Made by a program: the position numbers and the translations under genes. From Bdellovibrionales bacterium RIFOXYD12_FULL_39_22 (lineage in GTDB: Bacteria > Bdellovibrionota > Bacteriovoracia > Bacteriovoracales > Bacteriovoracaceae): a DNA stretch of 44,665 nt. Under the pieces are notes generated by a model that saw nothing but the letters and a program-made list of their open reading frames with translations, did not search any database and was not told the DNA's origin. Location of the stretch: contig MEQL01000041.1 in assembly GCA_001770205.1 (NCBI GenBank), positions 62,001-106,665 on the forward strand, written 5' to 3'. Positions 3,053 through 19,135 of the stretch are shown one piece after another; the first letter of the stretch is position 1, and each line of letters opens with the position of its first letter.

Positions 3053-3494
3053 CTTCAGGTTTTCTGATAATTTTTAAAATATGATCGATTTTACTTTGGT
3101 TGATTTCTGTTCGCTCTGTAAAGCCGTTAGTGGTGATGGAGCGTTCTTCCCAGAATTTATCAAAAAACTGTTTTTGGGAGATAATTACAAAAAGTTGAGA
3201 GCCAAATTTAATTTCGTCGGAGGGGGATAATTTAATCTCTTCTTGTGGCTTGATTATTTGGCCATTAACTCGCGTACCGTTTGTTGAACCCAAGTCCTTA
3301 ATAAAGACGTTATTTTTTCGTAATTCAATTGCAAAGTGCAGGCGACTTACTTTTTTATCATTAGGAAAGTTTACATCCCCACCCTCTCGCCCAATTACCA
3401 GTGATTTGGTGATATCAACGCAGCTGCGCTTATTTATATCAATTAGGTACCAAGTTTTATATTTTTTTGCCCCGATGGTGGAATTTGTGCTCAT
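3036..3494 (-). CDS. FHA domain protein
   Basis: IGR...VSRLH...DLGSTNGTRVNG FHA signature. Confidence 0.9.
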   Translation of the reverse strand: MSTNSTIGAKKYKTWYLIDINKRSCVDITKSLVIGREGGDVNFPNDKKVSRLHFAIELRKNNVFIKDLGSTNGTRVNGQIIKPQEEIKLSPSDEIKFGSQLFVIISQKQFFDKFWEERSITTNGFTERTEINQSKIDHILKIIRKPEDDFES

Positions 3495-3913
3495 AGTCCT
3501 ACTTTTTTAGAGGGGACAACAACTGTCTTTTCTGCAAAACCTAAACGATCCCGGCCATCTTCTTCGGAAAAATTATCAAAAGCTTGATGGTTATCGATAA
3601 AAATAAATTCTTGCTTACCTATTTTTATTTTGTCATTAATTTGCAAAATAGTGGTAGTGCTAACAGGGATAGGCAGATCATTTATAAGAGTGCCATTTGT
3701 AGATCCGAGGTCAATAATAGAAACACCAAATTCATTGATGGAGATGCGGCAGTGAATTCGACTAATCTCTTTATCTCCCGGAAAATTCAAAGTAGCAGAT
3801 TCTCGGCCAATAGACATATCGTCTGTCAAATCGAGGTAGCTTCGCGCTTGTAGACTAAAAAAATACCAACCAGTATGATGTTCAGATTTCTTGGTAGTGT
3901 GATTATGTTCCAT
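3491..3913 (-). CDS. FHA domain protein (paralog of neighbour)
   Basis: IGR...ISRIH...DLGSTNGTLIN. ATGA overlap with the next gene. Confidence 0.9.
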   Translation of the reverse strand: MEHNHTTKKSEHHTGWYFFSLQARSYLDLTDDMSIGRESATLNFPGDKEISRIHCRISINEFGVSIIDLGSTNGTLINDLPIPVSTTTILQINDKIKIGKQEFIFIDNHQAFDNFSEEDGRDRLGFAEKTVVVPSKKVGL

Positions 3914-6497: not shown

Positions 6498-6618
6498 AGC
6501 GAAATCGTTTTTTTTAGCTGTTTTAGGTTAGTTTAATTATGTTATAATTTTTTTTTATAAGCAAGCAGTTTATCGCCTGTGTTATTGGCCTGGCCTATTT
6601 TTGCCCGGGAGGCATAGC

Positions 6619-7482
6619 ATGATTCATGAAACGAAACAGATTAAAATGATCGATGGAATTTCTCTGCATGCACAGATTCGAGAAATTGGATCGCCTTATT
6701 GGATCGTGGCCGTGCATGGAATTGCGGAGCACCTAGGTCGGCATAAATATATTGCGGAATTATTGGGAGCAGATTTTAATATTCTACAGTTTGATTTACG
6801 TGGCCATGGAAAGAGTGAGGGACGGCGGGCGCACGTGGATAATTTTAAGCAATATTATCAAGATTTGTCCGAAGTGATAAATTTTTTAAAAGTGGAATTT
6901 CGGCCAGAAAAATATGCCTTAATGGGCCATTCCATGGGGGCATTAATTATTTGCGGGTATTTGGCGGATTATGTGCGCGATGATTTTTATCCATCACTAT
7001 GCTTTATCACCGCACCTCCAATTGTATTATCGGGAGCACTAGGATCAATTTTTAATTACTCTCCGCTATCTTTGGTGCAATGGTTGGCCTCGATTTCTGC
7101 GAGCGTCGAATTAGCGGGGTTGGTGGATTTAAGTTATCTTTCACATGACGCTAGAGTGCGAGAGCAATATATTCATGATGATTTAAATGCATTAAAACTT
7201 CATACCAAATTGGCCTTGGAGTTGGTGAAGAGCGCTAAAGAGGTTTATCGAAAACCGCTTAGAGTAAAATGTCCGGCGGTTTGCGCGATTGGTTCTGCGG
7301 ATCGAGTCGTTAGTGTCAATGCCGTTCGTGATTATTTTGGACAGGTGGAAAAGGGCTTCCTTTTGAAGATTTTTGATGGTGCCTATCATGAGTTACATAA
7401 TGAGGTTGGCAAATATCGTGAGCCCTATTTTGCCTTTCTGAAAGAGATCTTTCGCGATGTTTTTTATCCTCGCAATGATTGA
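6619..7482 (+). CDS. Alpha/beta hydrolase, lysophospholipase/monoacylglycerol lipase (Hydrolase_4) type
   Basis: VHGIAEHLGRH, DLRGHGKSEG, GHSMG, D...YHELHNE. ATG 6619 after GGAGG. Confidence 0.9.
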   Translation: MIHETKQIKMIDGISLHAQIREIGSPYWIVAVHGIAEHLGRHKYIAELLGADFNILQFDLRGHGKSEGRRAHVDNFKQYYQDLSEVINFLKVEFRPEKYALMGHSMGALIICGYLADYVRDDFYPSLCFITAPPIVLSGALGSIFNYSPLSLVQWLASISASVELAGLVDLSYLSHDARVREQYIHDDLNALKLHTKLALELVKSAKEVYRKPLRVKCPAVCAIGSADRVVSVNAVRDYFGQVEKGFLLKIFDGAYHELHNEVGKYREPYFAFLKEIFRDVFYPRND

Positions 7483-7621: not shown

Positions 7622-9226
7622 ATGGATTTTAAATATATGATTTTTAAAGTAGTTGTTGTCTGTTTGTGGATTCTCACTCTTCCATCTGTCGGGTATTCTA
7701 TCACCTCCCAAGATATTACATATGAAATCGAAAACTTTCAATTTGAGGCAAGCGAGATAGAACAAACAGTAGCTTCCTATCAACAAATTCAGAAGTCATA
7801 TGTACAGCTTCATCGGGAACGCTCGAATCATTCAGAGCTCATGTTCCTCAAATATAAAATGGAAATATTCAATTATTGGTTTTCTCAAAAATTGATCAAA
7901 AATGTTGAAAAATTGGCCAGAAGCAGGGAGCAAGTTGAAGAAATTTTTGATTTACTGCCATTCATCTTAAAAGATGATTTTGCTCGCAAAATTGGAATTA
8001 AATCTTCAAAAAATTCCCCTGAAAAATTTTTGGAGGTCAAAACGCTAGAAAGAACCTTGTGGTCTCTTTTTGATAACTGGAAAAACCTATCGCTGGCAAC
8101 GAGTTATCCAATTGAAGGCGAGAGCGCCTATTTTCATGGAATTACATTTCAGACCGGGGACCTCATTGTTGGAGATACAAACACCTATAGTTATGAGTTG
8201 ACTACCGCAACTAGAGACACCGAAGAAACCGGGAATCACTCCGCAATTTTTGTGTTGATGCATGTTAATGGACGATCGGTTCCAACTGTTTTTGATATGC
8301 ATGCTGATGGCGTGAGGGCCACGCCACTTTCGCATTATCTAAATGGAAGAATAAATACTTATCTTGAAGTGTATCGCCTAGATGAAAAGGAAAGGAGATT
8401 GTTGGATAAAGATTGGCAGAGTAAAATTCGTGCCTATTTTGAAAAAGTGGTATTGAAACAGAGATCATACAAATTTGATTTCACCGCCAGGGTCGAAAAT
8501 AATGATCGAAATATGTTAACCTGTACTGAGCTAGTGGAAGAGGCGATGAGAGCTGGCGGCATTGCGCCAGTTACTGAGTTAACGACCACTTTACCAGTGG
8601 CCTATGAAGTCATCACTAAATTTGGTACTTTAAGTCGAGAATATTTGACTCCGGCAGATTTTGTTTTTGATGGGCGATTTAAGATGGTTGGGTATGTCGA
8701 TATGCTCAACATTAAAACAAACATTCTCGTCAAGCTGGAGAGTAACGTCTTTAGCAGGGTGCTCAAAGAGCAGAGTATCAACACAAACAAAGTATTAAAA
8801 GAAATTAATAGAAAGGCAAAATCTATTGCCAAGATTAGACAACCACGCTCCCTCTTGGGCAAAATCATAAGAAGTGTTTCGGACCTTACTATTTTATCAT
8901 TCCCAACAGGGGAACCAAATCTTATTGCCTTTAACTTACTTTTTAATGAAGAGACGGAGAACGCAGTAAAGTTATGTTCTGGGGAGAAAAAGGTTATAGT
9001 GGGATACAGGACGACAAATAAAGAAAGGGGAATCCCCATGCGAGAACCAATCAAGGGCAACGATCAATGTTATGACTATTTTTCACCATTGTTGGAAAAT
9101 CTTGATCCGACGTTTGATGTAAGAAACTTCTTAACAAATGAAGAAAATTTTCAAGTAATGAGTCGCGCGATGAAATCACTGTTAGTATATTTCAATTCAG
9201 CAGACGAGGACACCAGTGAAGAATAA
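7622..9226 (+). CDS. Exported permuted NlpC/P60 (YiiX/YebB-like) amidase or acyltransferase
   Basis: Signal-like N-terminus. Ordered motifs TGDLIV, NHSAIF, YKFDF, LTCTELV, LTPADF, with His before Cys (permuted order). Confidence 0.7.
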   Translation: MDFKYMIFKVVVVCLWILTLPSVGYSITSQDITYEIENFQFEASEIEQTVASYQQIQKSYVQLHRERSNHSELMFLKYKMEIFNYWFSQKLIKNVEKLARSREQVEEIFDLLPFILKDDFARKIGIKSSKNSPEKFLEVKTLERTLWSLFDNWKNLSLATSYPIEGESAYFHGITFQTGDLIVGDTNTYSYELTTATRDTEETGNHSAIFVLMHVNGRSVPTVFDMHADGVRATPLSHYLNGRINTYLEVYRLDEKERRLLDKDWQSKIRAYFEKVVLKQRSYKFDFTARVENNDRNMLTCTELVEEAMRAGGIAPVTELTTTLPVAYEVITKFGTLSREYLTPADFVFDGRFKMVGYVDMLNIKTNILVKLESNVFSRVLKEQSINTNKVLKEINRKAKSIAKIRQPRSLLGKIIRSVSDLTILSFPTGEPNLIAFNLLFNEETENAVKLCSGEKKVIVGYRTTNKERGIPMREPIKGNDQCYDYFSPLLENLDPTFDVRNFLTNEENFQVMSRAMKSLLVYFNSADEDTSEE

Positions 9227-10730
9227 AAATAAAATTATTCCTAACGTTTTATCTTCAGAGTTAGAACGTGCACTATCTAGTTTTGCGGATAAAATTCTTT
9301 TAAGTGACGATTCTCTGAAGTTATCTGGAGCCGATATTTCAACATTAATTGCGCCAATCGTCCGAAGCATTAAGGCCTCTACAAGTAGTGGAGACGTAAT
9401 AGGGTTAGCTCTTCCGCATGGTGTTTTACAGGCGTTAACAACGATAGCGATAATTTTAAGTAATCGGGTGCCCATTGTTTTTAAAGAAAAAGATACATTT
9501 GAAATGATCAGTACAAAGGAAATGAGCTTACTAATTACTTCGTCTCATGATGAGCGATTTGTCTCTGTTTGCGAGAGTGATATCAACTACGGGGTATTAA
9601 AACGGATTTCAGAGACAAGCATTACCCTTGAGTTTAAAATTATAAATAATCATGAAACTCATAGTAAACTCCCGCCAGATGTAGGCATGATACTTTACAC
9701 CTCAGGATCAACAGGCCAAGCTTGTGGAATTATGATTCCGGCCGAGGGAACAGTTTTTTTGGCCCAGAGTTTGCGGGCCGAGTTTTTGCTTAACTCGAAT
9801 ACAACTTCCACAATCATACTTCCGCTTTCGCACACCATGTGTATTAATACACACTTTTTCCCTACCATTTTATCAGGCGGAAACGCATACTTTGCTCCTT
9901 CGCTTTCTAATCTAGGTACTGTCTATCGGAATATACTGGAAAGCAAGGGCGATAATTTAGCATTAATCTGTGATTTGCTCCCATATTTACACCAAGAAAG
10001 AAATTTGCGAGGCCTTCCTGCGGCAGCACATGTTAAAACGCTCTCATTATCTGGTGGAATGATTTCTGATTCTGATATTGAAGTGGCAAGTTCACTTTTC
10101 CCGAATGCAAGGATCTACAAAGGCTATGGCCTTACAGAGGCCACACGCATTGCCTTATCATGTATCAAAGATGGAGAGCGGTTGTTTGATGGCAACAATG
10201 GTTATAGTTTACTTGAAGGTGTTCAAATCCAAATTAGGGACGAGGAGAATAAACTCTGTAAGGCAGGGGTGGAGGGGGCCATTTTTATTAAGGCCAAAAC
10301 TCTCATGAAAGGCCATTACAATGAGGAAACTAATGTAATTGATTCGCAGGGATATTTTAAGTCGGGTGACATTGGAATGTTGTCACAGGAAGGAAGACTT
10401 TTTATCCATGGCCGCGCAGATGGCATAATTAAAATCAACGGCGAAAGAATTTCTGCTGCTCATATTGAAGAGACGGTCATGAGTTGCGAAGAAATTAAAA
10501 AGTATTATCAAGATGCGGTTTGTCTGCCGATTAAAACTGGTAATCGACATAAGGCGTATTTGTTTTTGGAGTCAATTGCCAACTCAATTCCAACCTCAGA
10601 TTGGGTGACAAAAAAGCTAAAGCAAGATTTAAAAAGAAGATTTAAAGTTCCCATCGAAGTGGTAGAAAAAAAATGTTTCCCAAGATCCAACACGGGAAAG
10701 GTTTTGTTAAAAGAGCTTTGCATTCTTTAG
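9216..10730 (+). CDS. Adenylate-forming (AMP-binding) acyl-CoA/acyl-ACP ligase
   Basis: YTSGSTG, GYGLTEA, SGDIG, GRADGIIKINGERI, PRSNTGK. Confidence 0.88.
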   Translation: MKNKNKIIPNVLSSELERALSSFADKILLSDDSLKLSGADISTLIAPIVRSIKASTSSGDVIGLALPHGVLQALTTIAIILSNRVPIVFKEKDTFEMISTKEMSLLITSSHDERFVSVCESDINYGVLKRISETSITLEFKIINNHETHSKLPPDVGMILYTSGSTGQACGIMIPAEGTVFLAQSLRAEFLLNSNTTSTIILPLSHTMCINTHFFPTILSGGNAYFAPSLSNLGTVYRNILESKGDNLALICDLLPYLHQERNLRGLPAAAHVKTLSLSGGMISDSDIEVASSLFPNARIYKGYGLTEATRIALSCIKDGERLFDGNNGYSLLEGVQIQIRDEENKLCKAGVEGAIFIKAKTLMKGHYNEETNVIDSQGYFKSGDIGMLSQEGRLFIHGRADGIIKINGERISAAHIEETVMSCEEIKKYYQDAVCLPIKTGNRHKAYLFLESIANSIPTSDWVTKKLKQDLKRRFKVPIEVVEKKCFPRSNTGKVLLKELCIL

Positions 10731-11467
10731 GCCAGCAAACTTTTCCCACCATCGAGATAAAACGTTTGTCCGGTGAATTGATTGTGCTCAACCGATAAAA
10801 TGTAGCTCACAAACTGCGCTACATCCTCCACAGAGGTTAATCTGCCTGATGGCGTTAGTGACCTGGCACCATTTACCCTTTCCTCTCGGTTTGGAAAACT
10901 ACTAATGGCATCTGTTTCCACCATCCCTGGACAAATTAACGAAACTCCGATATCTCGGGGCGCAAGTTCAACCGCATAGTGACGAAATAGGGAATTGAGT
11001 GCCCCCTTACTGCTTCCAACCGCGGCATATTGCTGCAAGTATCTATCGCTCCCTGCAGAAGTTAACCCAATTACTTTTGAGTTCTTTGTAAGTATGGGTA
11101 ATAGTCCAAGCAGCAGTTCATGAAATGAAAAGACATTTGTCTCAAACGTCCATCTAAGATGTTTGGTTTTTAACTGATCTACTGGACGGTGGACTCCACT
11201 GGCCGCACAGTGAATAAGCCCTTGTATTGCGCCTGCGGAATTTAAAATTTGTTGGAGAATTTGTTCGAGGTTATCTTCTTTTGTTAAATCACCTCGAAGA
11301 CAAATTAACTGGCCTGGAAAATTTTTTGCCAACTCTATCAGCTTGTTTGCTTCATCCGTATTTCGAGCATACAAGGCAAAGACCTTGTGGCCTTTTGCGA
11401 GTAACTCTAGACTAATGCCTCTGCCAATTCCTCTTGTTCCCCCAGTTATTACGTAGGTGTTTGTCAT
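10727..11467 (-). CDS. SDR, FabL-type enoyl-ACP reductase
   Basis: TGGTRGIG, AASGVHRP and Y-x6-K (YAAVGSSK), as in FabL-class enzymes. Confidence 0.75.
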   Translation of the reverse strand: MTNTYVITGGTRGIGRGISLELLAKGHKVFALYARNTDEANKLIELAKNFPGQLICLRGDLTKEDNLEQILQQILNSAGAIQGLIHCAASGVHRPVDQLKTKHLRWTFETNVFSFHELLLGLLPILTKNSKVIGLTSAGSDRYLQQYAAVGSSKGALNSLFRHYAVELAPRDIGVSLICPGMVETDAISSFPNREERVNGARSLTPSGRLTSVEDVAQFVSYILSVEHNQFTGQTFYLDGGKSLLA

Positions 11468-12225
11468 ACCGAATTATCTCCTAAAGAGCGGCCACCATCT
11501 ATTGTGATTACACTACCAGTTATATAGCTTGCATTTTCTGAGCATAAAAATAAGGCCAATTCTCCTACTTCTTCTGGCCGGCCAGCTCGACCAATAGGAA
11601 TTTTTTTTCTTAGTGATTTTTCTTCTCGTAGTTCATCTACCATTTTTTGCGTCATAGGCGTTTCGATAAGGCCTGGGGCCAATGCGTTTATTGTAATTCC
11701 ACGATGAGCAACCTCCATGGCCAAACACTTAGTAAAACCCTCTATTCCTGATTTAACGCAGGCATATCCGACTTGCCCCTTTTTAAAATAGTTTGCGCTC
11801 ACGGAAGAGAAGTTAATAATTCTTCCGAATTTTTCTTTATACATGTTTTTAAGACACAAATAAGAAAGCGCCATGGTTGTCAGGAGATGCTCTTGCACCA
11901 TTTCTTCCTGAACTGAAAAGTCCATATTTAAAAACAGGCCATCTCTTAATCGACCGGCACTATTGATAAGAATGGCCGGAGAGTTGGTAAATTGTTCACC
12001 AACCCGAGAATATAATTCCTGTGCTGTTTTGTGGCCATTTAATTCCCCCTTAAATAGCTCCACACGGCATTCGGGAAAATTGGCCTGAATTTGCGACTTT
12101 GCAAGAATGGCCTTTTCCTCATTGCTACCATATGCTAACGCAAGGTCGTAGTGTTGTGCTAGTTTGGTCGCACATGCATATCCAAGACCGGAAGTTCCAC
12201 CCGTAATTAATGCCAATTTTTTCAA
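11464..12225 (-). CDS. fabG: 3-oxoacyl-ACP reductase (FabG-like)
   Basis: TGGTSGLG, NSAGRLRDG, GQVGYACVK, PGLIETPMT, IPIGRAGRPEE. Confidence 0.85.
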   Translation of the reverse strand: MKKLALITGGTSGLGYACATKLAQHYDLALAYGSNEEKAILAKSQIQANFPECRVELFKGELNGHKTAQELYSRVGEQFTNSPAILINSAGRLRDGLFLNMDFSVQEEMVQEHLLTTMALSYLCLKNMYKEKFGRIINFSSVSANYFKKGQVGYACVKSGIEGFTKCLAMEVAHRGITINALAPGLIETPMTQKMVDELREEKSLRKKIPIGRAGRPEEVGELALFLCSENASYITGSVITIDGGRSLGDNSV

Positions 12226-12235
12226 GGTAATACCC

Positions 12236-13498
12236 TCACGCTTTTTTCAATACAACACAAATATTTTGTCCACCAAACCCAATATTATTGTTCAAAATAT
12301 ATTCTACCTTGCTATCCCTCGCTACAAGCGGAACATAATCTAAATCACAGAGAGGATCCTTCGTTTGTAAGTTTATAGTGGGGGCAAGTTTTTGATGTCG
12401 AAGCATTTGAACGCAGGCAATACTTTCTAAGATGCCTGCCGCAACAGTGGAGTGTCCAATCTGAGATTTTAATGAACTCACGGCCAACTTATAGGCATGC
12501 TCACCAAATAGTTCTTTTATGGCGAAAGTTTCTATTTTATCATTCAATAGCGTTGATGTCCCGTGTGCGTTGATATAATCGATTTGTTCTTTCTCAATAC
12601 CTGCATCACTAATGGCATTTGCCATCGCCTTTTGTAGACATAGTCCATCTTCTCGTGGATCGGTAAGTCGAAATGCGTCGGAAGTGTTTCCATAACCAAC
12701 GATTTCCGCCAGAATTGGATTTTTAGATTTTTTTTGTGAATCCTCCGATTCTAAGAGCAATACTCCGGCCGCTTCTCCTCTTACAAAGCCACATCTGGTT
12801 AAATCAAATGGCCGACTGGCAGTACTTGGTTCAACTTCCGCAGTAGATAACGCCATCAGCATGTGAAAATTCATCATATTTGCTAGTGTGCATCTGGTAT
12901 CTACGCCGGCAACGAGGACTCGATCCCATTGGCCGGCACGGATTCTTTGTAGTCCCATGCCTAATGCTTGATTCCCGGTCGCACAAGCTGCGTTAATAGA
13001 GTAAATTTTCTCTCGTTTAAGTTCAACTCCATAATATGATCTAATGCTATCAATTAAAAATTGATGACAACCATCCCCACTTAAAAGCTTAAAGTCAAAA
13101 TCCACACTGTTTTTCTTTTTATAGGCATCTTCCACTACTTCGTATCCAGTTCCATCTGGAGTGCCATATACAAATGCGTCAATTGATTCGACGCTTTTAA
13201 TCTGGCCAAAAATTTGTTCCAGCGCCAGTAAAGTACAGCGCCACGATCGGGCCAGCTCCCCAGTTTTTTCCAAACTGTCTATGATGTGTTGAGGAGTATA
13301 TTTAAAATGATTAAGGGAATCTTCAATGATACCAGCGTAGGGGATTGGAAAATCCTCTGAAAATTCTCCACTGCCTCTGATGTTTTTCACTCCGGATTTG
13401 CCAGCAAACATATTCTGGGTAAATGATTCAACGTTACATCCCATGGAAGAAATTACGCCACAAGATGTTATATATACCTTCCTTCGTAAAGTTGTCAT
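12236..13498 (-). CDS. Beta-ketoacyl-ACP synthase (FabF-like / type II PKS KS)
   Basis: Cys-His-His triad in NAACATG, NAHGTST, KSQIGH. Also SRPFD and GFGG. Confidence 0.92.
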   Translation of the reverse strand: MTTLRRKVYITSCGVISSMGCNVESFTQNMFAGKSGVKNIRGSGEFSEDFPIPYAGIIEDSLNHFKYTPQHIIDSLEKTGELARSWRCTLLALEQIFGQIKSVESIDAFVYGTPDGTGYEVVEDAYKKKNSVDFDFKLLSGDGCHQFLIDSIRSYYGVELKREKIYSINAACATGNQALGMGLQRIRAGQWDRVLVAGVDTRCTLANMMNFHMLMALSTAEVEPSTASRPFDLTRCGFVRGEAAGVLLLESEDSQKKSKNPILAEIVGYGNTSDAFRLTDPREDGLCLQKAMANAISDAGIEKEQIDYINAHGTSTLLNDKIETFAIKELFGEHAYKLAVSSLKSQIGHSTVAAGILESIACVQMLRHQKLAPTINLQTKDPLCDLDYVPLVARDSKVEYILNNNIGFGGQNICVVLKKA

Positions 13499-13500
13499 AG

Positions 13501-13755
13501 CTATAAACTTTTTAAAAATTTAACTAAATCGCCAACAACCATCGCTTTATCAGTAGGTAATAATGCGCGAAGTTTTGCCAAATCAACTTCTTTGTTAATA
13601 ATTTTTTCCAATTCAGATGCTATGTCCAACATGTCGATACTCTCGGCGCCTAAATCACTCAGGATCTTGCTTTCCATTTGTATTTCATCAGTATCGATAT
13701 CTAAAACGTCTGCAATAGCTTCTTGAATTTTCACAAATAGTTCTTTGTCGTTCAT
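13501..13755 (-). CDS. Acyl carrier protein
   Basis: 84 aa, acidic. DLGAESIDMLDI phosphopantetheine serine motif. Confidence 0.9.
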   Translation of the reverse strand: MNDKELFVKIQEAIADVLDIDTDEIQMESKILSDLGAESIDMLDIASELEKIINKEVDLAKLRALLPTDKAMVVGDLVKFLKSL

Positions 13756-13757
13756 TT

Positions 13758-14495
13758 TTATTCCTCCTTGAAATTAAACCTGGATATTAATTGATTTGTC
13801 ATTCCATAATTATAATCACGTTTTTGGGAAGTCATTGTTTCTGATTTTTCGCTTCCAGTCCCTAATAAAAGTACCACTGCACTTTCTGAGAGCGGGAGGT
13901 CTTGGAGCTGTTTATGTTTTAATAAATTGAGTGGGTCTTCATCACTAAACGCACATATCACCAAAGCAAAGTCAATTTGAGATTGAGCTAAATCAAACTC
14001 CGCTTGCTCTAGCGCATGAATTGCTCCGAGCTGAGGATGAGTGAAGACGTAGGTTGGGCCATTGATCTCGTAGGATATTCCAATTTGGGCCGCGGCCAAA
14101 TTGGGAAGCTGCTTTAAATACATTTTAGGGTTTCTTTCTCGTTTGTAGTTTTGGTGAAATTCCTCACGCTTTCCTTCAAGTACTTTTTCAACTATTTCAT
14201 AGTCGACACTCCCATTTTCTACTGCACAATAAATCCCCACGCGAAAGGAATCGTCCCGTATTAACTTTAAATGTTCTGCCGAGATGTTTGCGCAAGCAAA
14301 ATGCATTAAACAACAGGCCCTAGAACATGATCTTGTTGCCTGACTAAATTCCCCCAGCAATTGTTTGTTACTATAACTAAAACTCCTTACCTTCTCGATA
14401 ATCTTCTCAGGGGAGATGCATCGAATATGCACTGTTTTTTCTCCCAGGTTATTACCGTGTGGATAAACAAAATGCTTCCATAGTACTTTTGACAT
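13758..14495 (-). CDS. Truncated, catalytically inactive ketosynthase N-terminal-domain protein (chain-length-factor-like)
   Basis: YLKQLPNLAAAQIGISYEINGP KS segment. No Cys at the expected site (THPQLGAIHAL) and no C-terminal His domain. Start set at ATG 14495 after GAGGG; TTG 14540 is an alternative. Confidence 0.7.
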   Translation of the reverse strand: MSKVLWKHFVYPHGNNLGEKTVHIRCISPEKIIEKVRSFSYSNKQLLGEFSQATRSCSRACCLMHFACANISAEHLKLIRDDSFRVGIYCAVENGSVDYEIVEKVLEGKREEFHQNYKRERNPKMYLKQLPNLAAAQIGISYEINGPTYVFTHPQLGAIHALEQAEFDLAQSQIDFALVICAFSDEDPLNLLKHKQLQDLPLSESAVVLLLGTGSEKSETMTSQKRDYNYGMTNQLISRFNFKEE

Positions 14496-14704
14496 TATAC
14501 CCTCGATTTTTTTCGTTAATTTTATCACTGATGTTTTCAAAAGGGTATCAAGGAATTATTTTCCAGGAGCTTTTCTAATAGAAAAAAAATAGAATCATGA
14601 AATAATTTTATAATGCTAAAAGAATTCACTTATCAAACGATTGTCAGGAAGGAAGATATTGACGCCTCCAAATAGGTTAAAGTTTTTAATTAAGGAGAAT
14701 TAAA

Positions 14705-15160
14705 ATGCTATGGTATTTACTCGATAGAATTACAGAGTGTGATCCTGGGAAAACAATTACGGCCACAAAGTGTTTTACGCGATCAGAAGAGATCTTCCAA
14801 CATCATTTTGTAAATTACCCCATCGTTCCTGGAGTTTTACAAATTGAGATGATCGCGCAAGCGGGAGGAAAATGCATAAAGGTTTATGATGGCCAACTTG
14901 CGCCGGCCCTTGCAAGCGTAAAGAAAGCAAAATTTTACCAGAGCATTTTCCCTGGTGATAAATGCGAAGTGAAGGCCCAGGTTATCCAATTAACTAGTCA
15001 GTACGCGCTATGTACCGGAACAATTACTGTGGATGGGAAAAAAAAGGCAAGCGCAGAGATTTTATACTCATTTTTAGATCCAAAAGTCTCCTCCAAATTA
15101 GTTCCAGACGAGATTGTAGAAGAGTGGAAAGCAAAACAAAAGGCCCTAGGAAAAGAATAG
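14705..15160 (+). CDS. fabZ: 3-hydroxyacyl-ACP dehydratase (FabZ-like)
   Basis: LLDRI, FQHHFVNYPIVPGVLQIEMIAQ, FPGD. AAGGAG RBS. Confidence 0.88.
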   Translation: MLWYLLDRITECDPGKTITATKCFTRSEEIFQHHFVNYPIVPGVLQIEMIAQAGGKCIKVYDGQLAPALASVKKAKFYQSIFPGDKCEVKAQVIQLTSQYALCTGTITVDGKKKASAEILYSFLDPKVSSKLVPDEIVEEWKAKQKALGKE

Positions 15161-15161
15161 T

Positions 15162-17135
15162 ATGTGTGGGATTTGGGGAGAGTTTGGCCCGCAAGTTAAT
15201 TTTGATCGGTCCAAATTGCAAAGAACAGTTACTTCACTTTTTCACCGGGGCCCCGATGGTTTTGGTTATTATTCAACTGATAATTGCGCTCTTGTCCATA
15301 CGCGACTAAGTATTATTGATTTTGCAACTGGAGGTCAGCCGCTTGTTTCATATGATAAGAATGTAATTGGGATAGTGAACGGGGAGATCTACGACTATCA
15401 AAAAATCAAAAAGGAGTTACAGTCAGAAGGCGTATATTTTAATACCAATTCGGATAGCGAAGTATTGCTCAATCTTTTTGTGAAGAAGGGAATTTCCGCT
15501 TTAAAAAACATTCATGGGGAATATGCCTATATATTTTATGATTTGGCCAAAAAGCGAGTTTACTTTGGGAGAGATCCATTTGGAGTAAAACCGCTTTATA
15601 TCTTGAAAAAAAATAATTCGATAGTTTTGGCCAGCGAGATAAAGGCCATTCTTGCAAACGAAACGTATGAGATTAACACTAATTATCTGATCAATTATAT
15701 CTGCAGCTTCATCCCGCCTATGGAAACTTTATTTCAAAACATTCAGCACGTGTATCCTGATAGATCATACGAATACGACATTACAAAAAATCGTTTTATC
15801 GAAACGGCCCTGGAATCGCTTAAATTTGATCAGACGAGAATCAAACACACCACCAAAGAGGAGGCCACTTACAAATTAGAACTTGCACTAAAAAACAGTG
15901 TGAAAAGAAGGTTGGTGGCGGATGTGGAGGTTGGATCATATTTAAGTGGAGGAATCGATAGTGCTCTAATGCTGGGCCTCATGTGTGAACAGGGGGCCAG
16001 ACCCAAGGCATTTACGGTAAGCTTTGAAGATAAACAATATGATGAATCTCACAAGGCAATGGCGGTGGCCAAGCATTTGGGAGTTAAGCATGAGATAGTT
16101 GTATTAAGTCAGCAAAATTTTTTTGATCATTTAGGGCAATCGATTGTTGCGTTTGAATCTCCGATAATTAATCCACATGGGGCGGCGAAAAATCTTCTAA
16201 GCAGTCTTGCTTCTAAGCATTTAAAGGTTGTATTATCCGGAGAGGGGGCGGATGAACTTTTTGCCGGTTATGCTCACCATCGTTTGAATAAACTAGATCG
16301 ATTTTTGGCCAGACATCCACTTTTTGCGGCCGAAAAGGTGATAAATAGTTTTATAGAGAAGAGGGCCGGGACCGGCAGTAAATATTTATGTGGGAAGGAT
16401 TATCCATTTGAGGCAGAAATAAAAGCGATTTTTGATGGGGAGTATCCAGGCCAATTTAAACGTTTAATCAATGAGAAAAATGCCCGATATCTTTTTGGTA
16501 AAGAGATTAAAAACTTGATTGCAAGTAGCACCCAAAAGATAAAATATCTGGCAGAGATGGATAATATCACTGAATGCAAAAATCAACTTAGCTATCAACT
16601 CTGGTTGGATATTAGGTTAGATCTTCTGCATTATATTCTAGCAAATCTTGGAGATAGACAAGAAATGTCAAATTCCATTGAAGGCAGAACTCCATTTTTG
16701 GATCTGGAGGTGGCAAATTTGGCGATGTCTTACCCGGCCAATTTTCTTATCAGTGGACTAACGGAAAAATATCTCTTAAAAGAGATTTCTAAAAAGTATC
16801 TGCCTTTAAAAAATGCCAATGAATCGAAACATGCTTTTTTTGCGCCAGAAGATTATTTCAAATCAAAAACAGGAGAAGTTTTTTTAAATAGCTATCTGTC
16901 GGACGCAAAGGGATTACTTAAATTTTTAAATTGGAGCAAAATTGACAGATTATTTCAGTACACTGCCGGCGAGGGCGATACCAAAAATAGTGAAACGAAT
17001 ACATTAAAACTTTTATTAGCGTCGACGTCATATTTGTTACAGGAAATAAAGAAAGCAACGAAGTCTAGTCAAAAGTTACAAAACAGTTTTTCCGATGCAA
17101 TTATCAAAGGAGAACCACATGTCGTTATATTATGA
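15162..17135 (+). CDS. asnB: Asparagine synthetase B-like glutamine-dependent amidotransferase
   Basis: MCGI, HTRLSIID, NGEIY, YLSGGIDS, SGEGADELFAGY, EGRTPFLD. Confidence 0.9.
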   Translation: MCGIWGEFGPQVNFDRSKLQRTVTSLFHRGPDGFGYYSTDNCALVHTRLSIIDFATGGQPLVSYDKNVIGIVNGEIYDYQKIKKELQSEGVYFNTNSDSEVLLNLFVKKGISALKNIHGEYAYIFYDLAKKRVYFGRDPFGVKPLYILKKNNSIVLASEIKAILANETYEINTNYLINYICSFIPPMETLFQNIQHVYPDRSYEYDITKNRFIETALESLKFDQTRIKHTTKEEATYKLELALKNSVKRRLVADVEVGSYLSGGIDSALMLGLMCEQGARPKAFTVSFEDKQYDESHKAMAVAKHLGVKHEIVVLSQQNFFDHLGQSIVAFESPIINPHGAAKNLLSSLASKHLKVVLSGEGADELFAGYAHHRLNKLDRFLARHPLFAAEKVINSFIEKRAGTGSKYLCGKDYPFEAEIKAIFDGEYPGQFKRLINEKNARYLFGKEIKNLIASSTQKIKYLAEMDNITECKNQLSYQLWLDIRLDLLHYILANLGDRQEMSNSIEGRTPFLDLEVANLAMSYPANFLISGLTEKYLLKEISKKYLPLKNANESKHAFFAPEDYFKSKTGEVFLNSYLSDAKGLLKFLNWSKIDRLFQYTAGEGDTKNSETNTLKLLLASTSYLLQEIKKATKSSQKLQNSFSDAIIKGEPHVVIL

Positions 17136-17925
17136 AACTGTTGGAGCTAAAACTTTGCCCTTACTGGTTGCAGTGCATGGACTTATGGGAGGAGTGGAGG
17201 AGCTCAAGTTTTTGGAATCTTTGCACAATCACTTTCATGTGATTTTTGTTGATTTTAATTATGAGCTGAAAAAGAAAAGTATTGCTGATCGTGACTTAAA
17301 AACGATTGATTATGATCACGGTTCAGACATGATTGCAAATATGCTTGAAACAAAGTTTGGTGGAAAGGGGGCTTACTTTTTTGGCTCTAGCTATGGAGGT
17401 AAAATCATTTTTGATTTCATGGCAAAGTTTCCGCGGCTTTATCTTGGGGGAGTGTTTGGCGATATTTCGCCTGCTCCAATTGAAGATACCGAGTTTTATA
17501 AGTTAACCTACAACGTTGTTCCTCAACTTAACATGAATCAAGATTGGAAGAGTTTAAAAAAACAGATTAAAGAACTGGTTCCAGATAGAAACGCATATTC
17601 TTTGTTAGCAAGTCAAGTGTATTACCCAACGGTTGATGGGCCGGCGATTTGGCGAACAGGGGTGCACAAACTAAATGAGGTAATGTCTTGTCTAAAAATT
17701 AATAATCAGTGGCATATTTTTGAGAAGATGAATGACATTAAAGATAAAAAAAGTATTATTTTGGTGGCAGAAAATTTAAGTTCCATTTCAGAAGGGTCAC
17801 TGGCCAGATTGAAGTCCACACCTCTTTTTGAACTTATCTCTGTCCCCGATGCTTCGCATTTTATCAACATCACTCATCATCAAGTGATAATCGACAAGTT
17901 ATTGAGTATGATTCAATCTCGCTAA
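17119..17925 (+). CDS. Alpha/beta hydrolase (possible thioesterase)
   Basis: VHGLMGG, GSSYGG nucleophile elbow, C-terminal SHF. ATG 17119 after AGGAG. Confidence 0.8.
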   Translation: MSLYYETVGAKTLPLLVAVHGLMGGVEELKFLESLHNHFHVIFVDFNYELKKKSIADRDLKTIDYDHGSDMIANMLETKFGGKGAYFFGSSYGGKIIFDFMAKFPRLYLGGVFGDISPAPIEDTEFYKLTYNVVPQLNMNQDWKSLKKQIKELVPDRNAYSLLASQVYYPTVDGPAIWRTGVHKLNEVMSCLKINNQWHIFEKMNDIKDKKSIILVAENLSSISEGSLARLKSTPLFELISVPDASHFINITHHQVIIDKLLSMIQSR

Positions 17926-17983
17926 AATTACTTATGCACACAAGTGCGTTGACAATTGCAACCAAATCTTTTCTAATTTTCTC

Positions 17984-18002
17984 AAGCCGAATATCGGTTT
18001 TT
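17984..18002 (+). terminator. Weak hairpin followed by a short T-run at the island right end
   Basis: aagccga-ata-tcggttt then tt. Confidence 0.3.
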
Positions 18003-18009
18003 GGCAGAC

Positions 18010-18045
18010 CTTTCGCGATGTTTTTTATCCTCGCAATGATTGATG
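18010..18045 (+). repeat. 36-bp direct repeat, right copy
   Basis: Identical to 7449-7484. Extends to 39/40 including the upstream AGA. Confidence 0.95.
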
Positions 18046-18064
18046 TCTTGAGACTTGAGCTGTT

Positions 18065-19135
18065 ATGATAAAATTAAAACTCTCTGCTTTGTTGACGATA
18101 ATTTTTTTTCTTTCGTTTTTTGCTCAGGCAGAAACTGGAGCGCATTTTTTTAGTGAAGGAGGGGAGCCTCTTTTGCAATACGAGACCAAGTATCAGGAGA
18201 TGTTGAAATTTTATCCAACGAGTATGCCGGAGAAGATTTTGGTTGTTTTTACCGACAAAGATGTTTCGAAGTTTAATACCAGGACAAATACAATTTACTT
18301 ATCACGCAATAGGTTTGCTAAAATGTCAACGTATCTCATTGCCCACGAAACGTCACATCTTGCCCTTTGGAAATATACTGCAGGGGCCAGTTTGGATGGC
18401 AAGTTTCGTTTTTTTGATGAGGGATATGCTTGTATTGTGGGAAATATACTTGCAAATAGGCTGGAAGAATATAAGCATGAAGAAGCACTTCCTATTTCTG
18501 CCACTCAATATAAAAAACAAAACGTCTCCTTTGAGAAAGTTGCAGATTGGAAAAATTATTTTGGCAATCCAAATACTGCTGATTGGAATTTTTATGCCTA
18601 TCATGTTGGGGCCAGTTTTAATTTTTTTATTTTAGATACCTATGGCCAGCAGGAACTAAATCACTTTTTTTTAAGTGTTGGCCAAACGCGTGACTTGGAA
18701 AGTAGTTTCCAAAAAGTTTTTTTTAAATCAAAAGTTGAAATTGAAGCTGGTTGGTTAAACTATCTATCGAAGATTGATCTGTCCATGGCCCAAAATCCGT
18801 ATGTTCTAACTACGGCCCCTTTAAATAATTCAAAAAGTGTTTCAATAAATCTTTCGGAAATTTCTGTGACATTTAATACCCCCATGCTGGAAAACGTCAT
18901 TTTCACCTCCAATCGTTGCCAAGAACTTTGTTACAATAATGCCAAATGGAAAGATTCTAAAACCTTAGTGGTTACTATAACTGGCAAATTAAAAGCAAAT
19001 ACATCGTATTATCTAACTCTTGGCAGCGATAAGTATAAACGATATCTAGTCAGTAAGACTGGAATTGATATGCCCACCTATATTTGGAAATTTACCACAG
19101 CGCCAGCACCGATGAATATAGATCCATCACAGTAG
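18065..19135 (+). CDS. Secreted HExxH zinc metallopeptidase (MA/gluzincin-like) with C-terminal Ig-like domain
   Basis: Signal peptide, IAHETSH, FFDEGYA. C-terminal TAPLNN...ISVTFNTPM...WKFTT resembles Big_5/SbsA Ig. Confidence 0.75.
   Translation: MIKLKLSALLTIIFFLSFFAQAETGAHFFSEGGEPLLQYETKYQEMLKFYPTSMPEKILVVFTDKDVSKFNTRTNTIYLSRNRFAKMSTYLIAHETSHLALWKYTAGASLDGKFRFFDEGYACIVGNILANRLEEYKHEEALPISATQYKKQNVSFEKVADWKNYFGNPNTADWNFYAYHVGASFNFFILDTYGQQELNHFFLSVGQTRDLESSFQKVFFKSKVEIEAGWLNYLSKIDLSMAQNPYVLTTAPLNNSKSVSINLSEISVTFNTPMLENVIFTSNRCQELCYNNAKWKDSKTLVVTITGKLKANTSYYLTLGSDKYKRYLVSKTGIDMPTYIWKFTTAPAPMNIDPSQ

Follow-up and report, generated by a model that had tools for sequence, protein, structure and literature searches.

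An accessory, fatty acid synthase-like ten-gene cluster with a putative half-size ketosynthase partner in a Bdellovibrionota genome

The window, i.e., the whole analyzed stretch of 44,665 nucleotides from Bdellovibrionales bacterium RIFOXYD12_FULL_39_22, harbors ten genes between positions 7622 and 17925. All of them (10/10) were confirmed as open reading frames (ORFs) at the positions given by the initial annotation and were assigned to families by means of Pfam and NCBIfam, which bore out its gene inventory:

7622..9226, plus strand: secreted Peptidase_C92 protein (YaeF/YiiX-type, permuted papain-like) with helical N- and C-terminal extensions; Pfam PF05708
9216..10730, plus strand: adenylate-forming ligase; Pfam AMP-binding, 95.5 bits
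10727..11467, minus strand: FabL-like enoyl-ACP reductase (SDR); NCBIfam FabL NF005975, 202 bits
11464..12225, minus strand: FabG-like 3-oxoacyl-ACP reductase; TIGR01830, 195.9 bits
12236..13498, minus strand: FabF-like ketosynthase (KS, beta-ketoacyl-ACP synthase) of a cassette-specific clade; TIGR03150 fabF, 322 bits
13501..13755, minus strand: dedicated ACP; Pfam PP-binding
13758..14495 (ORF to 14540), minus strand: half-size Cys-less KS partner (CLF-like), 245 aa; weak ketoacyl-synt N-terminal match only
14705..15160, plus strand: FabZ-like 3-hydroxyacyl-ACP dehydratase; NF000582 FabZ, 89.9 bits
15162..17135, plus strand: AsnB-like glutamine-dependent amidotransferase; TIGR01536, 380 bits
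17119..17925 (ORF from 17095), plus strand: cytoplasmic alpha/beta hydrolase (ABH2); weak Pfam Abhydrolase_6 match

The genes of C92 and the ligase share 11 bases. Judging from the homologues, the KS partner probably starts at the Met at 14495, which gives 245 aa, and the alpha/beta hydrolase probably at the common start at 17119. Genes for FabD, FabH, a transporter or a regulator were said to be missing, and none was found by Pfam and NCBIfam within 7622-17925. The proposed division into three transcription units fits the gene orientation, but a scan for promoter-like sites (37 vs. 31.5 expected) and terminator-like sites (7 vs. 10.5 expected) did not rise above chance. The arrangement of the genes itself is far beyond chance, and the block is found again in other genomes: two MAGs of related Bdellovibrionota (L008/L060 and L009) contain all of it between unrelated flanks, and thus the boundaries 7622-17925 hold.

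As had been claimed, the cluster is accessory, the housekeeping enzymes of fatty acid synthesis (FAS) being encoded on other contigs, i.e., FabF (578 bits) and FabD on contig C37 and FabH on contig C39, all over the curated cut-offs. The core proteins of the cluster all have FAS enzymes as their best family match, which would also be the case for ordinary housekeeping FAS genes located beside an unrelated AsnB, ligase and hydrolase; the initial annotation had itself named a cluster forming the only FAS copies of the host as the case that would speak against it. This explanation is rejected with hardly any doubt. Besides the copies found elsewhere, the KS, FabG, FabZ and FabL-like proteins of the cluster are all below the NCBIfam equivalog cut-offs (493.75 bits for fabF TIGR03150, 297.75 for TIGR01830, 113 for NF000582 FabZ and 328 for FabL NF005975), only 15 of the 401 genomes from the phylum have the partner gene and its cassette, and the linkage of ligase, hydrolase and AsnB to the cassette was kept through rearrangements in many loci. 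A Bdellovibrio-like bacterium features a second FAS gene set which is rare and self-contained.

This fully reducing, type II FAS-like cluster is built on a conserved six-gene cassette encoding FabZ (dehydratase), the half-size Cys-less KS partner, ACP, KS, FabG (ketoreductase) and the FabL-type reductase (enoyl reductase). With the partner profile, 41 loci were fetched from Bdellovibrionota, Chlorobiota, Nitrospirota and Acidobacteriota. The six genes are complete and in one order in 33 of these; the remaining eight comprise six loci cut by contig ends, one without ACP and one without FabL (L028). The inferred predatory lineage is supported insofar as the nearest loci belong to Bdellovibrionota MAGs, but the gene set is not unique to it, with the core cassette spanning several phyla. 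Ligase, alpha/beta hydrolase and AsnB, on the other hand, are lineage-specific add-ons.

Among 28 cassette KS, the catalytic residues Cys172, His312, His349 and Lys344 are invariant, by which the KS is putatively active. In a phylogeny, which had been proposed as a check, the cassette KS form a clade of their own (100/100 support) outside the branches of the genome's own FabF, of E. coli ApeO and of ApeR. The partner, for which neither Pfam nor NCBIfam holds a family-specific model, is without the C-terminal half which bears the two His in the KS; its family has no invariant Cys, and in the profile alignment Pro154 stands opposite Cys172 of the KS. Structure comparison of its AF2 model (pLDDT 91.8) revealed a KS-like fold, the best VIA matches including 6qsp (Z 19.4) and the ishigamide CLF (Z 19.1). 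Together, partner and KS are predicted to form a heterodimer with ipSAE values of 0.97, 0.96 and 0.97 (best control 0.00), a partner pLDDT of 91 and at least 98% of contacts in agreement between runs; of the solved complexes, 116 of 157 come up to the same mark, compared with 2 of 215 mismatched pairs, and as solved KS/CLF complexes exist, this pass may reflect likeness to them. At the level of models, fold and pairing agree with the KS/CLF logic suggested initially, and the partner may represent a new, half-size helper of the chain-extending KS.

The other core proteins likewise keep their catalytic motifs. At least 90% of 30 ACP orthologues keep Ser39 of the E-S-I-D motif, and His34 and Glu48 are conserved in 32 orthologues of the FabZ-like protein, while YxxxK is found in all FabG-like members of the cassette and Y-x6-K (YAAVGSSK here) in every FabL-like member, which is of the FabI/FabL type. 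As this enoyl reductase belongs to the core and is nearly always present (35 of 41 loci), a saturated chain is to be expected rather than a polyene. The "polyene amide" offered by the initial annotation is accordingly unlikely, and we regard an aryl-polyene-like or other highly reducing type II PKS producing an unsaturated pigment or polyene amide as very improbable. In its favor, the principle of a half-size CLF is known from ApeO/ApeC (PMC8358021), the partner model resembles 6qsp and the ishigamide CLF, and FabG matches the flexirubin FlxB reductase model (179 bits, below the cut-off of 340). Apart from the enoyl reductase, it is contradicted by the 100/100 branch separating the cassette KS from ApeO and ApeR, by an hhalign probability of 0.3% for the partner profile against ApeC of E. 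coli CFT073, and by the absence of the second dehydratase, methyltransferase, LolA/MMPL pair and lysophospholipid acyltransferase of the CFT073 cluster.

Across 21 orthologues, the ligase keeps its adenylation motifs, the C-terminal Lys495 among them, and the enzyme is proposed to load a starter acid on the cluster ACP. Its orthologues at other loci match best to long-chain-fatty-acid--CoA ligase (150-154 bits) and to Aas-type acyl-ACP ligase domains. The copy in the window scores against o-succinylbenzoate, oxalate and amino-acid activating enzymes about as high as against fatty-acid ligases, with o-succinylbenzoate-CoA ligase as best NCBIfam match (121 bits) and oxalyl-CoA synthetase among the best PDB matches (78.7 bits). 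The alpha/beta hydrolase features a G97-x-S99-x-G101 motif and His255, both conserved in 20 orthologues, no visible signal sequence and no close solved relative (best PDB match 23.5 bits); it is proposed as a putative thioesterase or acyl-transferase releasing the chain.

The AsnB-like protein exceeds the TIGR01536 cut-off of 267 bits, and all 13 cluster AsnBs carry Met-Cys-Gly at the N-terminus as well as the SGGxDS PP-loop; a second AsnB is encoded on contig C7. In the PDB, 7ylz (137 bits), a solved homologue amidating a free polyketide acid, comes close behind E. coli AsnB 1ct9 (149 bits), and a role as carboxamide-forming tailoring enzyme is proposed. The amidation assumed initially is plausible, but no fixed part of the system. 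Full-length AsnB occurs in 13 of the 41 loci, adjoined by the hydrolase in 12, and seven of the 20 loci with hydrolase are without it. In the nearest relative (L008/L060), AsnB is an in-frame deletion remnant of about 205 aa which lost the synthetase domain, with the other nine genes intact. This patchy occurrence, together with the remnant, fits a terminal, optional amidation better than amidation of the starter. In the latter case, the ACP would be charged by the ligase with a dicarboxylate (malonate, succinate or a longer one), the omega-carboxyl group of which AsnB would amidate for acceptance by the KS, and the cassette would produce an omega-carbamoyl fatty acid whose amide may be cleaved off at a later stage by ABH2 or by the exported C92 "amidase". 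OxyD, an AsnB-type enzyme forming carboxamides, would be a parallel, as would MgsD, GbnC and the cryptic amide of gladiolin; GbnA, GbnB, GbnC and GbnM are an ACP, a loader, an AsnB homologue whose substrate is succinyl-ACP, and an amidase for a later step. The ligase matches to o-succinylbenzoate-CoA ligase and oxalyl-CoA synthetase would suit such a route, as would the annotation of C92 as a permuted papain-like amidase. Nevertheless, it is considered unlikely: if priming depended on AsnB, its loss should not be tolerated, yet AsnB decayed in L008/L060 beside intact ligase, C92 and ABH2 genes. Moreover, AsnB is absent in 9 of 22 ligase-bearing loci even with remnants and fragments counted as present, ABH2 was kept in the seven loci mentioned, a malonamidase-type amidase is not present, and the ligase orthologues elsewhere are closest to long-chain fatty-acid ligases.

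The C92 protein (PF05708, 29.4 bits vs. a cut-off of 27) has only six homologues among 5.8 billion proteins, in all of which His201, His222, Cys296 and the pair Cys447/Cys478 are invariant. Its AF2 model (pLDDT 75.7) matches YiiX 2if6 (E 1.4e-4, TMt 0.66) and the Cys peptidase 3kw0. Its hydrophobic, signal-like N-terminal segment means that cytoplasmic intermediates bound to the ACP cannot be its substrates. This slot adjoining the ligase is filled in most of the other Bdellovibrionota versions by a patatin-like protein, also with an N-terminal signal-like sequence. Such lipase-like partners would be in line with an envelope-lipid pathway, in which the cassette makes a very long or special fatty acid for an outer-membrane lipid or lipid A, the exported C92 or patatin-like protein transfers or trims periplasmic acyl chains, and AsnB amidates the head group instead of the acyl chain. 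The rhizobial accessory FAS, with its own ACP, dehydratase and two KS genes for the C28 acyl chain of lipid A in the accessible part of the source (PMC11901934), is consistent with this, as are the MacB/FtsX-type ABC parts, LolA-like proteins, glycosyltransferases, PlsC-like acyltransferase and sulfotransferase accompanying Chlorobiota and Nitrospirota versions and the cassette at L039 adjoining bamA, skp and a second fabZ. Still, we judge this pathway to be improbable. The cluster contains no exporter or acceptor-specific acyltransferase; an LpxXL-type or other such acyltransferase, a flippase and a Lol-like exporter are missing from 7622-17925 as well as from the two closest loci, relatives show no synteny for the MMPL gene at 806-3052, and the rarity of the cassette in the phylum argues against a core envelope function.

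We lean towards an accessory FAS that is primed by the ligase and yields a special saturated acyl chain, whereas a primary fatty amide as end product here is a tentative proposal. With gene set, catalytic residues, cassette conservation and accessory status read directly from the DNA, the pathway might proceed as follows. The substrate adenylated by the ligase would be a carboxylic acid, most probably a fatty acid, which the enzyme would load on the dedicated ACP, with malonyl units supplied by the housekeeping FabD. The active KS, in its predicted KS/CLF-like heterodimer with the Cys-less 245-aa partner, would extend the chain, the length of which is presumably set by the partner, and FabG, FabZ and the FabL-type reductase would fully reduce each unit, resulting in a saturated chain to be released or transferred by the cytoplasmic alpha/beta hydrolase. 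The optional AsnB homologue may then adenylate the free carboxylate and form the primary amide with glutamine-derived ammonia. The exported C92 protein (patatin-like elsewhere) would act on a lipid outside the cytoplasm, either by freeing the starter fatty acid or by processing the product.

In agreement with the initial annotation, no characterized cluster with the same gene set was found in the open-access literature, and the closest known systems each share a part of it. The TsnB9-like hydroxyamidotransferase 7ylz and GbnC/MgsD are, like the window AsnB, class II glutamine amidotransferases with a PP-loop domain encoded in acyl or polyketide clusters; the window enzyme is no closer to 7ylz than to E. 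coli AsnB. GbnC, according to the available description, amidates an ACP-bound succinyl starter with glutamine nitrogen, and in contrast to the gladiolin system as described there, the window has neither an AT-type loader nor a malonamidase-type amidase. The rhizobial cluster acpXL-fabZXL-fabF2XL-fabF1XL-adhA2XL-lpxXL is likewise an accessory type II FAS with its own ACP, dehydratase and two KS-family genes, extending ordinary acyl chains for a special lipid. However, in the accessible text both KS genes are full length (fabF2XL 1197 bp), the LpxXL acyltransferase, which has no counterpart in the window cluster, sets the fate of the product, and ligase, AsnB and FabL-type reductase do not appear (PMC11901934). 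ApeO/ApeC (E. coli CFT073, Xenorhabdus, Acinetobacter; PDB 6qsp) combine an active FabF-like KS with a partner of about half its size, a single thiolase-fold domain without the catalytic Cys (PMC8358021). The window cluster shares this principle, with the partner model aligning to 6qsp, and both clusters have a dedicated ACP, ketoreductase, dehydratase and adenylating enzyme. They differ in that no relation between the partner family and E. coli ApeC is detectable in sequence, the KS branches separately from ApeO and ApeR, the enoyl reductase lets a saturated product be expected, and LolA/MMPL, glycosyltransferase, methyltransferase and acyltransferase genes are missing from the window cluster. 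In the "ladderane cluster" of anammox bacteria, the inactive FabF homologue amxFabFmut is encoded just upstream of the active amxFabF2, and both form a KS/CLF-like heterodimer (bioRxiv 10.64898/2026.05.19.726425). There, amxFabFmut is full length (about 392 aligned C-alpha atoms) compared with 245 aa here, whereas the window cluster has no radical SAM genes and places the ACP gene between partner and KS. Both systems are nevertheless accessory and FAS-like and pair, here by prediction, an inactive FabF homologue with an active one in a KS/CLF-like manner, and the profile of the window partner matches a 294-aa partner in a radical-SAM FAS-like cluster of the window's own genome (hhalign 94.6%).

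All ten ORFs of the accessory type II FAS/PKS cluster proposed in the initial annotation were found, and their products were assigned to families by Pfam and NCBIfam.

Genes of the cluster and of its upstream flank (window coordinates, strand and product; bit scores with the cut-off of the respective family model)
806-3052 (-), 3036-3913 (-): MMPL-family transporter and two tandem FHA-domain proteins, 4.6 kb upstream of the cluster
6601-7482 (+): Hydrolase_4 alpha/beta hydrolase (lysophospholipase/monoglyceride-lipase type), 140 bases upstream of the C92 gene
7622-9226 (+): Peptidase_C92 protein (C92; YaeF/YiiX, permuted NlpC/P60-like), 29.4 bits, cut-off 27 (Pfam)
9216-10730 (+): adenylate-forming ligase (Pfam/NCBIfam)
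10727-11467 (-): SDR with FabL as best NCBIfam match, 202 bits, cut-off 328 (NF005975)
11464-12225 (-): FabG-like reductase (Pfam/NCBIfam)
12236-13498 (-): FabF-like ketosynthase (KS), 322 bits, cut-off 493.75 (TIGR03150)
13501-13755 (-): ACP (Pfam/NCBIfam)
13758-14540 (-, ORF): KS partner, marginal ketoacyl-synt N-terminal match only
14705-15160 (+): FabZ-like dehydratase (Pfam/NCBIfam)
15162-17135 (+): AsnB-like amidotransferase, 380 bits, cut-off 267 (TIGR01536)
17095-17925 (+, ORF): alpha/beta hydrolase ABH2 (Pfam/NCBIfam)

Comparison with homologues places the start of the KS partner at the Met at 14495, giving a protein of 245 aa, and that of ABH2 at 17119. The absence of FabD, FabH, a transporter and a regulator within 7622-17925 was likewise confirmed by Pfam and NCBIfam. 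The three transcription units claimed for the cluster are those read from gene orientation; consensus scans for promoters and terminators gave matches not above the shuffled expectation. The same arrangement of the ten-gene block recurs in two related Bdellovibrionota MAG lineages (loci L008/L060 and locus L009) with identities of 50% to 85%, and none of the window's flank genes, including the Hydrolase_4 gene, is found beside it there. Since the block recurs without these genes, the limits 7622-17925 given in the initial annotation are those of a syntenic block. MMPL proteins export lipids in other systems, and the transporter at 806-3052 was considered as the exporter of the cluster and rejected for want of synteny with it in relatives. 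The Hydrolase_4 protein showed a weak match to the phospholipase BipL (Pfam/NCBIfam). A contig of metagenome origin, L061, matches the window at 100% identity. DNA nearly identical to window positions 9000-17900 occurs in eight metagenome runs on groundwater and soil, drawn from five studies, and the assembly may derive from some of these runs; none of the runs matching this stretch was of RNA.

Housekeeping fatty acid synthesis is encoded elsewhere in the genome to which the window belongs (3.95 Mb in 62 contigs, completeness 94.6%), which bears out the accessory status of the cluster. A FabF above the equivalog cut-off (578 bits) is encoded on contig C37 adjoining FabD, and FabH lies on contig C39; the window KS remains below the TIGR03150 cut-off and is not the main FabF of this genome. 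Two further accessory FAS-like clusters were observed in the same genome, on contig C12 at about 128800-137100 (L054:10845-19113) and on contig C35 at about 127000-135100 (L055:971-9075). In each, enzymes of the B12-binding radical SAM type are grouped with a FabZ-like gene, an active KS, SDRs, an ACP and a KS partner without Pfam match (360 and 294 aa, respectively), a layout reminiscent of the anammox 'ladderane' cluster (bioRxiv 10.64898/2026.05.19.726425).

In the KS of the cluster, Cys172, His312, His349 and Lys344 are invariant among 28 cassette members. The KS phylogeny proposed in the initial annotation, a maximum-likelihood tree of 40 rows, united 34 cassette KS in a clade (support 100/100, branch 1.58) apart from the FabF of the genome and three of its other accessory KS as well as from ApeO and ApeR, the outgroups being few and on long branches, with one ApeO and one ApeR sequence (E. 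coli CFT073). The partner is modeled with a KS-type thiolase fold (pLDDT 91.8), its matches by VIA including the 6qsp entry (Z 19.4), the ishigamide CLF (Z 19.1) and 6smp_I of the AntDE:AntF entry (Z 19.0), and its best Foldseek match being the FabF 4ddo (E 4.8e-9). Conserved cysteines are absent from the partner family, the profile alignment placing Pro154 of the partner at KS Cys172, and the protein is devoid of the half bearing both KS histidines. Thus, a Cys-less partner of KS fold is encoded beside an active KS with invariant triad, as is characteristic of the KS/CLF type. Complex prediction with both alignments yielded ipSAE values of 0.97, 0.96 and 0.97 for KS and partner versus 0.00 for the best control, the mark being reached by 116 of 157 solved complexes versus 2 of 215 mismatched pairs. 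In the predicted complex the partner has a pLDDT of 91, at least 98% of the contacts are common between runs, and the interface takes in KS residues 165-171 adjoining the active Cys. Nevertheless, the high predicted values may stem from likeness to solved KS/CLF complexes and not from true binding.

As far as the searches show, the partner family is undescribed. An atlas look-up named it no further than 'beta-ketoacyl synthase N-terminal-like', and its profile gave only marginal KS matches among PDB sequences (E at least 0.036). About 200 relatives of similar length were found in a set of 5.8 billion proteins, and when 1.84 billion representatives were searched exhaustively with its profile, 275 matched at E <= 1e-3, of which 66 reached E <= 1e-30; almost all have 190-280 aa, and no full-length KS is among the strong matches. 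The 294-aa partner from the radical-SAM cluster on contig C35 is related to the family, the profile reaching 94.6% against it in hhalign.

A locus scan with one genome per species gave 41 loci, in which gene presence was counted from a tblastn map. The order FabZ, partner, ACP, KS, FabG and FabL-like reductase is complete in 33 of them, and six of the eight incomplete loci (L016, L022, L036, L037, L043, L048) end at contig ends. The other two are L014, without ACP and with the KS only as a fragment, and L028 from Bdellovibrionales, in which the FabL-like reductase is missing and AsnB directly follows FabG; here, the product may be an unsaturated variant or the reductase may be encoded elsewhere. 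The loci are labeled as Bdellovibrionota, Chlorobiaceae (12), Nitrospirota/Thermodesulfovibrionales, Acidobacteriota (2) and a few 'Pseudomonadota' MAGs. Of 401 genomes sampled from the phylum of the window, 15 contained the partner gene at E <= 1e-10 (11 of these, including the genome of the window, at E <= 1e-50), as did 6 of 100 further genomes from its own family, so that the cassette is rare and patchy.

The companions of the six core genes vary considerably. The ligase occurs in 22 of the 41 loci, ABH2 in 20, full-length AsnB in 13 (adjoining ABH2 in 12 of these, in either order) and C92 in two. Cassettes of Chlorobiota and Thermodesulfovibrionales are devoid of ligase, ABH2, AsnB and C92 or patatin-like genes; their flanks (L019, L024 and L012 from Chlorobiaceae and Thermodesulfovibrionales) instead carry a PPTase, a type III PKS-like protein with weak matches to DpgA and the chalcone synthase C-terminus, MacB/FtsX-type ABC parts, a LolA-like protein, glycosyltransferases and, in one locus, a sulfotransferase. 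These cassettes may serve an exported alkyl-phenolic or glycolipid pathway, and no literature on such a pathway was found among open-access papers and bioRxiv. Because the companion genes differ by lineage, the core is best described as a chain-building unit that is reused in different lipid pathways.

Every FabG-like member carries YxxxK, the His and Glu of FabZ and the Ser of the ACP are conserved, and every FabL-like member features Y-x6-K (YAAVGSSK in the window protein), a spacing which marks enoyl reductases of the FabI/FabL type; the window protein itself remains under the FabL equivalog cut-off. With such a reductase belonging to the core, the polyene product considered in the initial annotation is unlikely. 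The adenylation motifs of the ligase are conserved as well. In NCBIfam and PDB sequence matches the window ligase is equidistant from many adenylating families. For its orthologues in loci of more typical make-up, the highest scores are to long-chain fatty-acid ligases and the ligase domains of Aas-type acyl-ACP enzymes.

With regard to amidation, the AsnB-like protein exceeds the TIGR01536 cut-off and has the N-terminal Cys nucleophile and PP-loop of its family; among solved structures it comes closest to E. coli AsnB (149 bits), followed by the hydroxyamidotransferase 7ylz (137 bits). Contig C7 of the genome carries another AsnB-like gene (363 bits). A Met-Cys-Gly start and SGGxDS (SGGIDS in the window protein) are present in all 13 cluster AsnBs, which on these motifs are glutamine-dependent, ATP-using amidotransferases. 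ABH2, with conserved GxSxG and C-terminal His and a single match among PDB sequences (23.5 bits), occurs without full-length AsnB in seven loci. In L008/L060, the nearest relative, AsnB (L008:1322-1930; L060 about 17831-18400) has moreover lost its synthetase domain through an in-frame deletion; the remnant, of about 205 aa, consists of the N-terminal glutaminase part fused to the final ~58 residues, and all nine other cluster genes are intact. Enzymes of the 7ylz type offer a precedent for amidating a released acid. Amidation of an ACP-bound dicarboxyl starter has its own precedent in GbnC, and a corresponding role of AsnB at the start of the chain (GbnA/B/C/M, MgsC/D type) would fit the presence of ACP, AsnB homologue and ligase, compared by gene types, yet hardly the dispensability of AsnB in relatives. 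Amidation of the released acid is therefore favored over starter amidation, since AsnB is optional, ABH2 persists without its full-length form and L008/L060 retain only the remnant. The acyl amide claimed for the cluster is plausible, but for only part of the family.

The protein beside the ligase differs among relatives. In 13 loci of the Bdellovibrionota type, the ligase has as its neighbor a patatin-like protein of some 415 aa, whose N-terminus is signal-like; in the window, L008 and L009, this slot is taken by C92, likewise with a signal-like N-terminus. C92 exceeds the Pfam gathering cut-off by a small margin and has no match among PDB sequences, but its central domain matches YiiX (top Foldseek match 2if6, E 1.4e-4, TMt 0.66); its homologues, which number only six, all share His201, His222, Cys296 and a pair of Cys residues. 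Three of the six agree with partner homologues in the length of the longest contig. That C92 is a diverged patatin-like protein was rejected for lack of sequence likeness (BLASTP E 0.22), and judged by sequence the one is a non-homologous replacement of the other. The usual nucleophile motif of patatins is Gly-x-Ser-x-Gly. At this position the patatin-like proteins beside the ligase (L039:7987-9243 and 12 other loci) have a conserved Thr-Cys-Gly. A Cys nucleophile in these proteins would parallel the Cys enzyme C92, which replaces them in the window. The putatively exported enzyme of either kind must act outside the cytoplasm, be it upstream by freeing fatty acids or downstream by processing the lipid product.

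Taken together, the cluster most likely works by ligase priming, complete reduction of the chain and release by ABH2, with chain length, starter and end product as we infer them. The ligase would prime the private ACP, and the KS/partner pair would extend the chain with malonyl units supplied by the housekeeping FabD. Complete reduction in each cycle would lead to a saturated chain, which ABH2 would release or transfer and which, in lineages having AsnB, could be amidated as the released acid in the manner of 7ylz. A more novel reading, to which we assign a low probability, would be that the cassette, including the half-KS partner that no family model covers, is an undescribed multi-phylum chain-building module, coupled in Bdellovibrionota to a fatty-acid ligase and to a lipase-like enzyme that is exported (patatin-like or, in the window, C92). 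Foreign lipids, possibly those of prey, would then yield fatty acids which the private ACP captures for elongation to a long saturated chain of defined length; after its release, AsnB would in some lineages turn this chain into a primary fatty amide acting as signal or membrane-active agent.

Orphan FAS- and PKS-like clusters are common. No characterized or published cluster with this gene set was found among open-access papers and bioRxiv, and the cluster is a real, conserved and uncharacterized accessory FAS-like cluster, in which nothing points to an unprecedented mechanism yet. As all but one of the 41 loci carry a MAG label, we know of no product chemistry. Knowing the product would define a class of lipids or fatty amides common to Bdellovibrionota, green sulfur bacteria, Nitrospirota and Acidobacteriota and would reveal how chain length is set by a partner of half size when reduction is complete. 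The wiring of exported lipase, ligase and AsnB in Bdellovibrionota suggests a connection, open to testing, of lipid scavenging with specialized lipid synthesis. Among known systems, the cassette would work in the manner of the KS/CLF pair ApeO/ApeC, whose partner is also of half size (PMC8358021). Still, membership in the aryl polyenes was rejected, as the partner is not ApeC (hhalign probability 0.3% for its profile against E. coli CFT073 ApeC; no match to the ApeC family PF13723 in the Pfam scan of the cluster), the KS falls outside ApeO/ApeR and an enoyl reductase belongs to the core. Moreover, the LolA/MMPL export and acyl/glycosyl-transferase genes of the CFT073 cluster have no counterpart in 7622-17925. 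The anammox amxFabF2/amxFabFmut system is also FAS-like with an inactive partner which is of full length, unlike that of the cassette (bioRxiv 10.64898/2026.05.19.726425). The rhizobial acpXL cluster (PMC11901934) is alike in purpose, but it includes an LpxXL-type lipid A acyltransferase, and no acyltransferase family was matched in 7622-17925 or its flanks. From the known accessory FAS/PKS-like clusters with inactive KS partners considered here, namely aryl polyenes, the ishigamide system, the anammox cluster and the rhizobial VLCFA genes, the cassette differs by its distinct partner family of ~245 aa, its own KS clade and its fixed full reducing loop.
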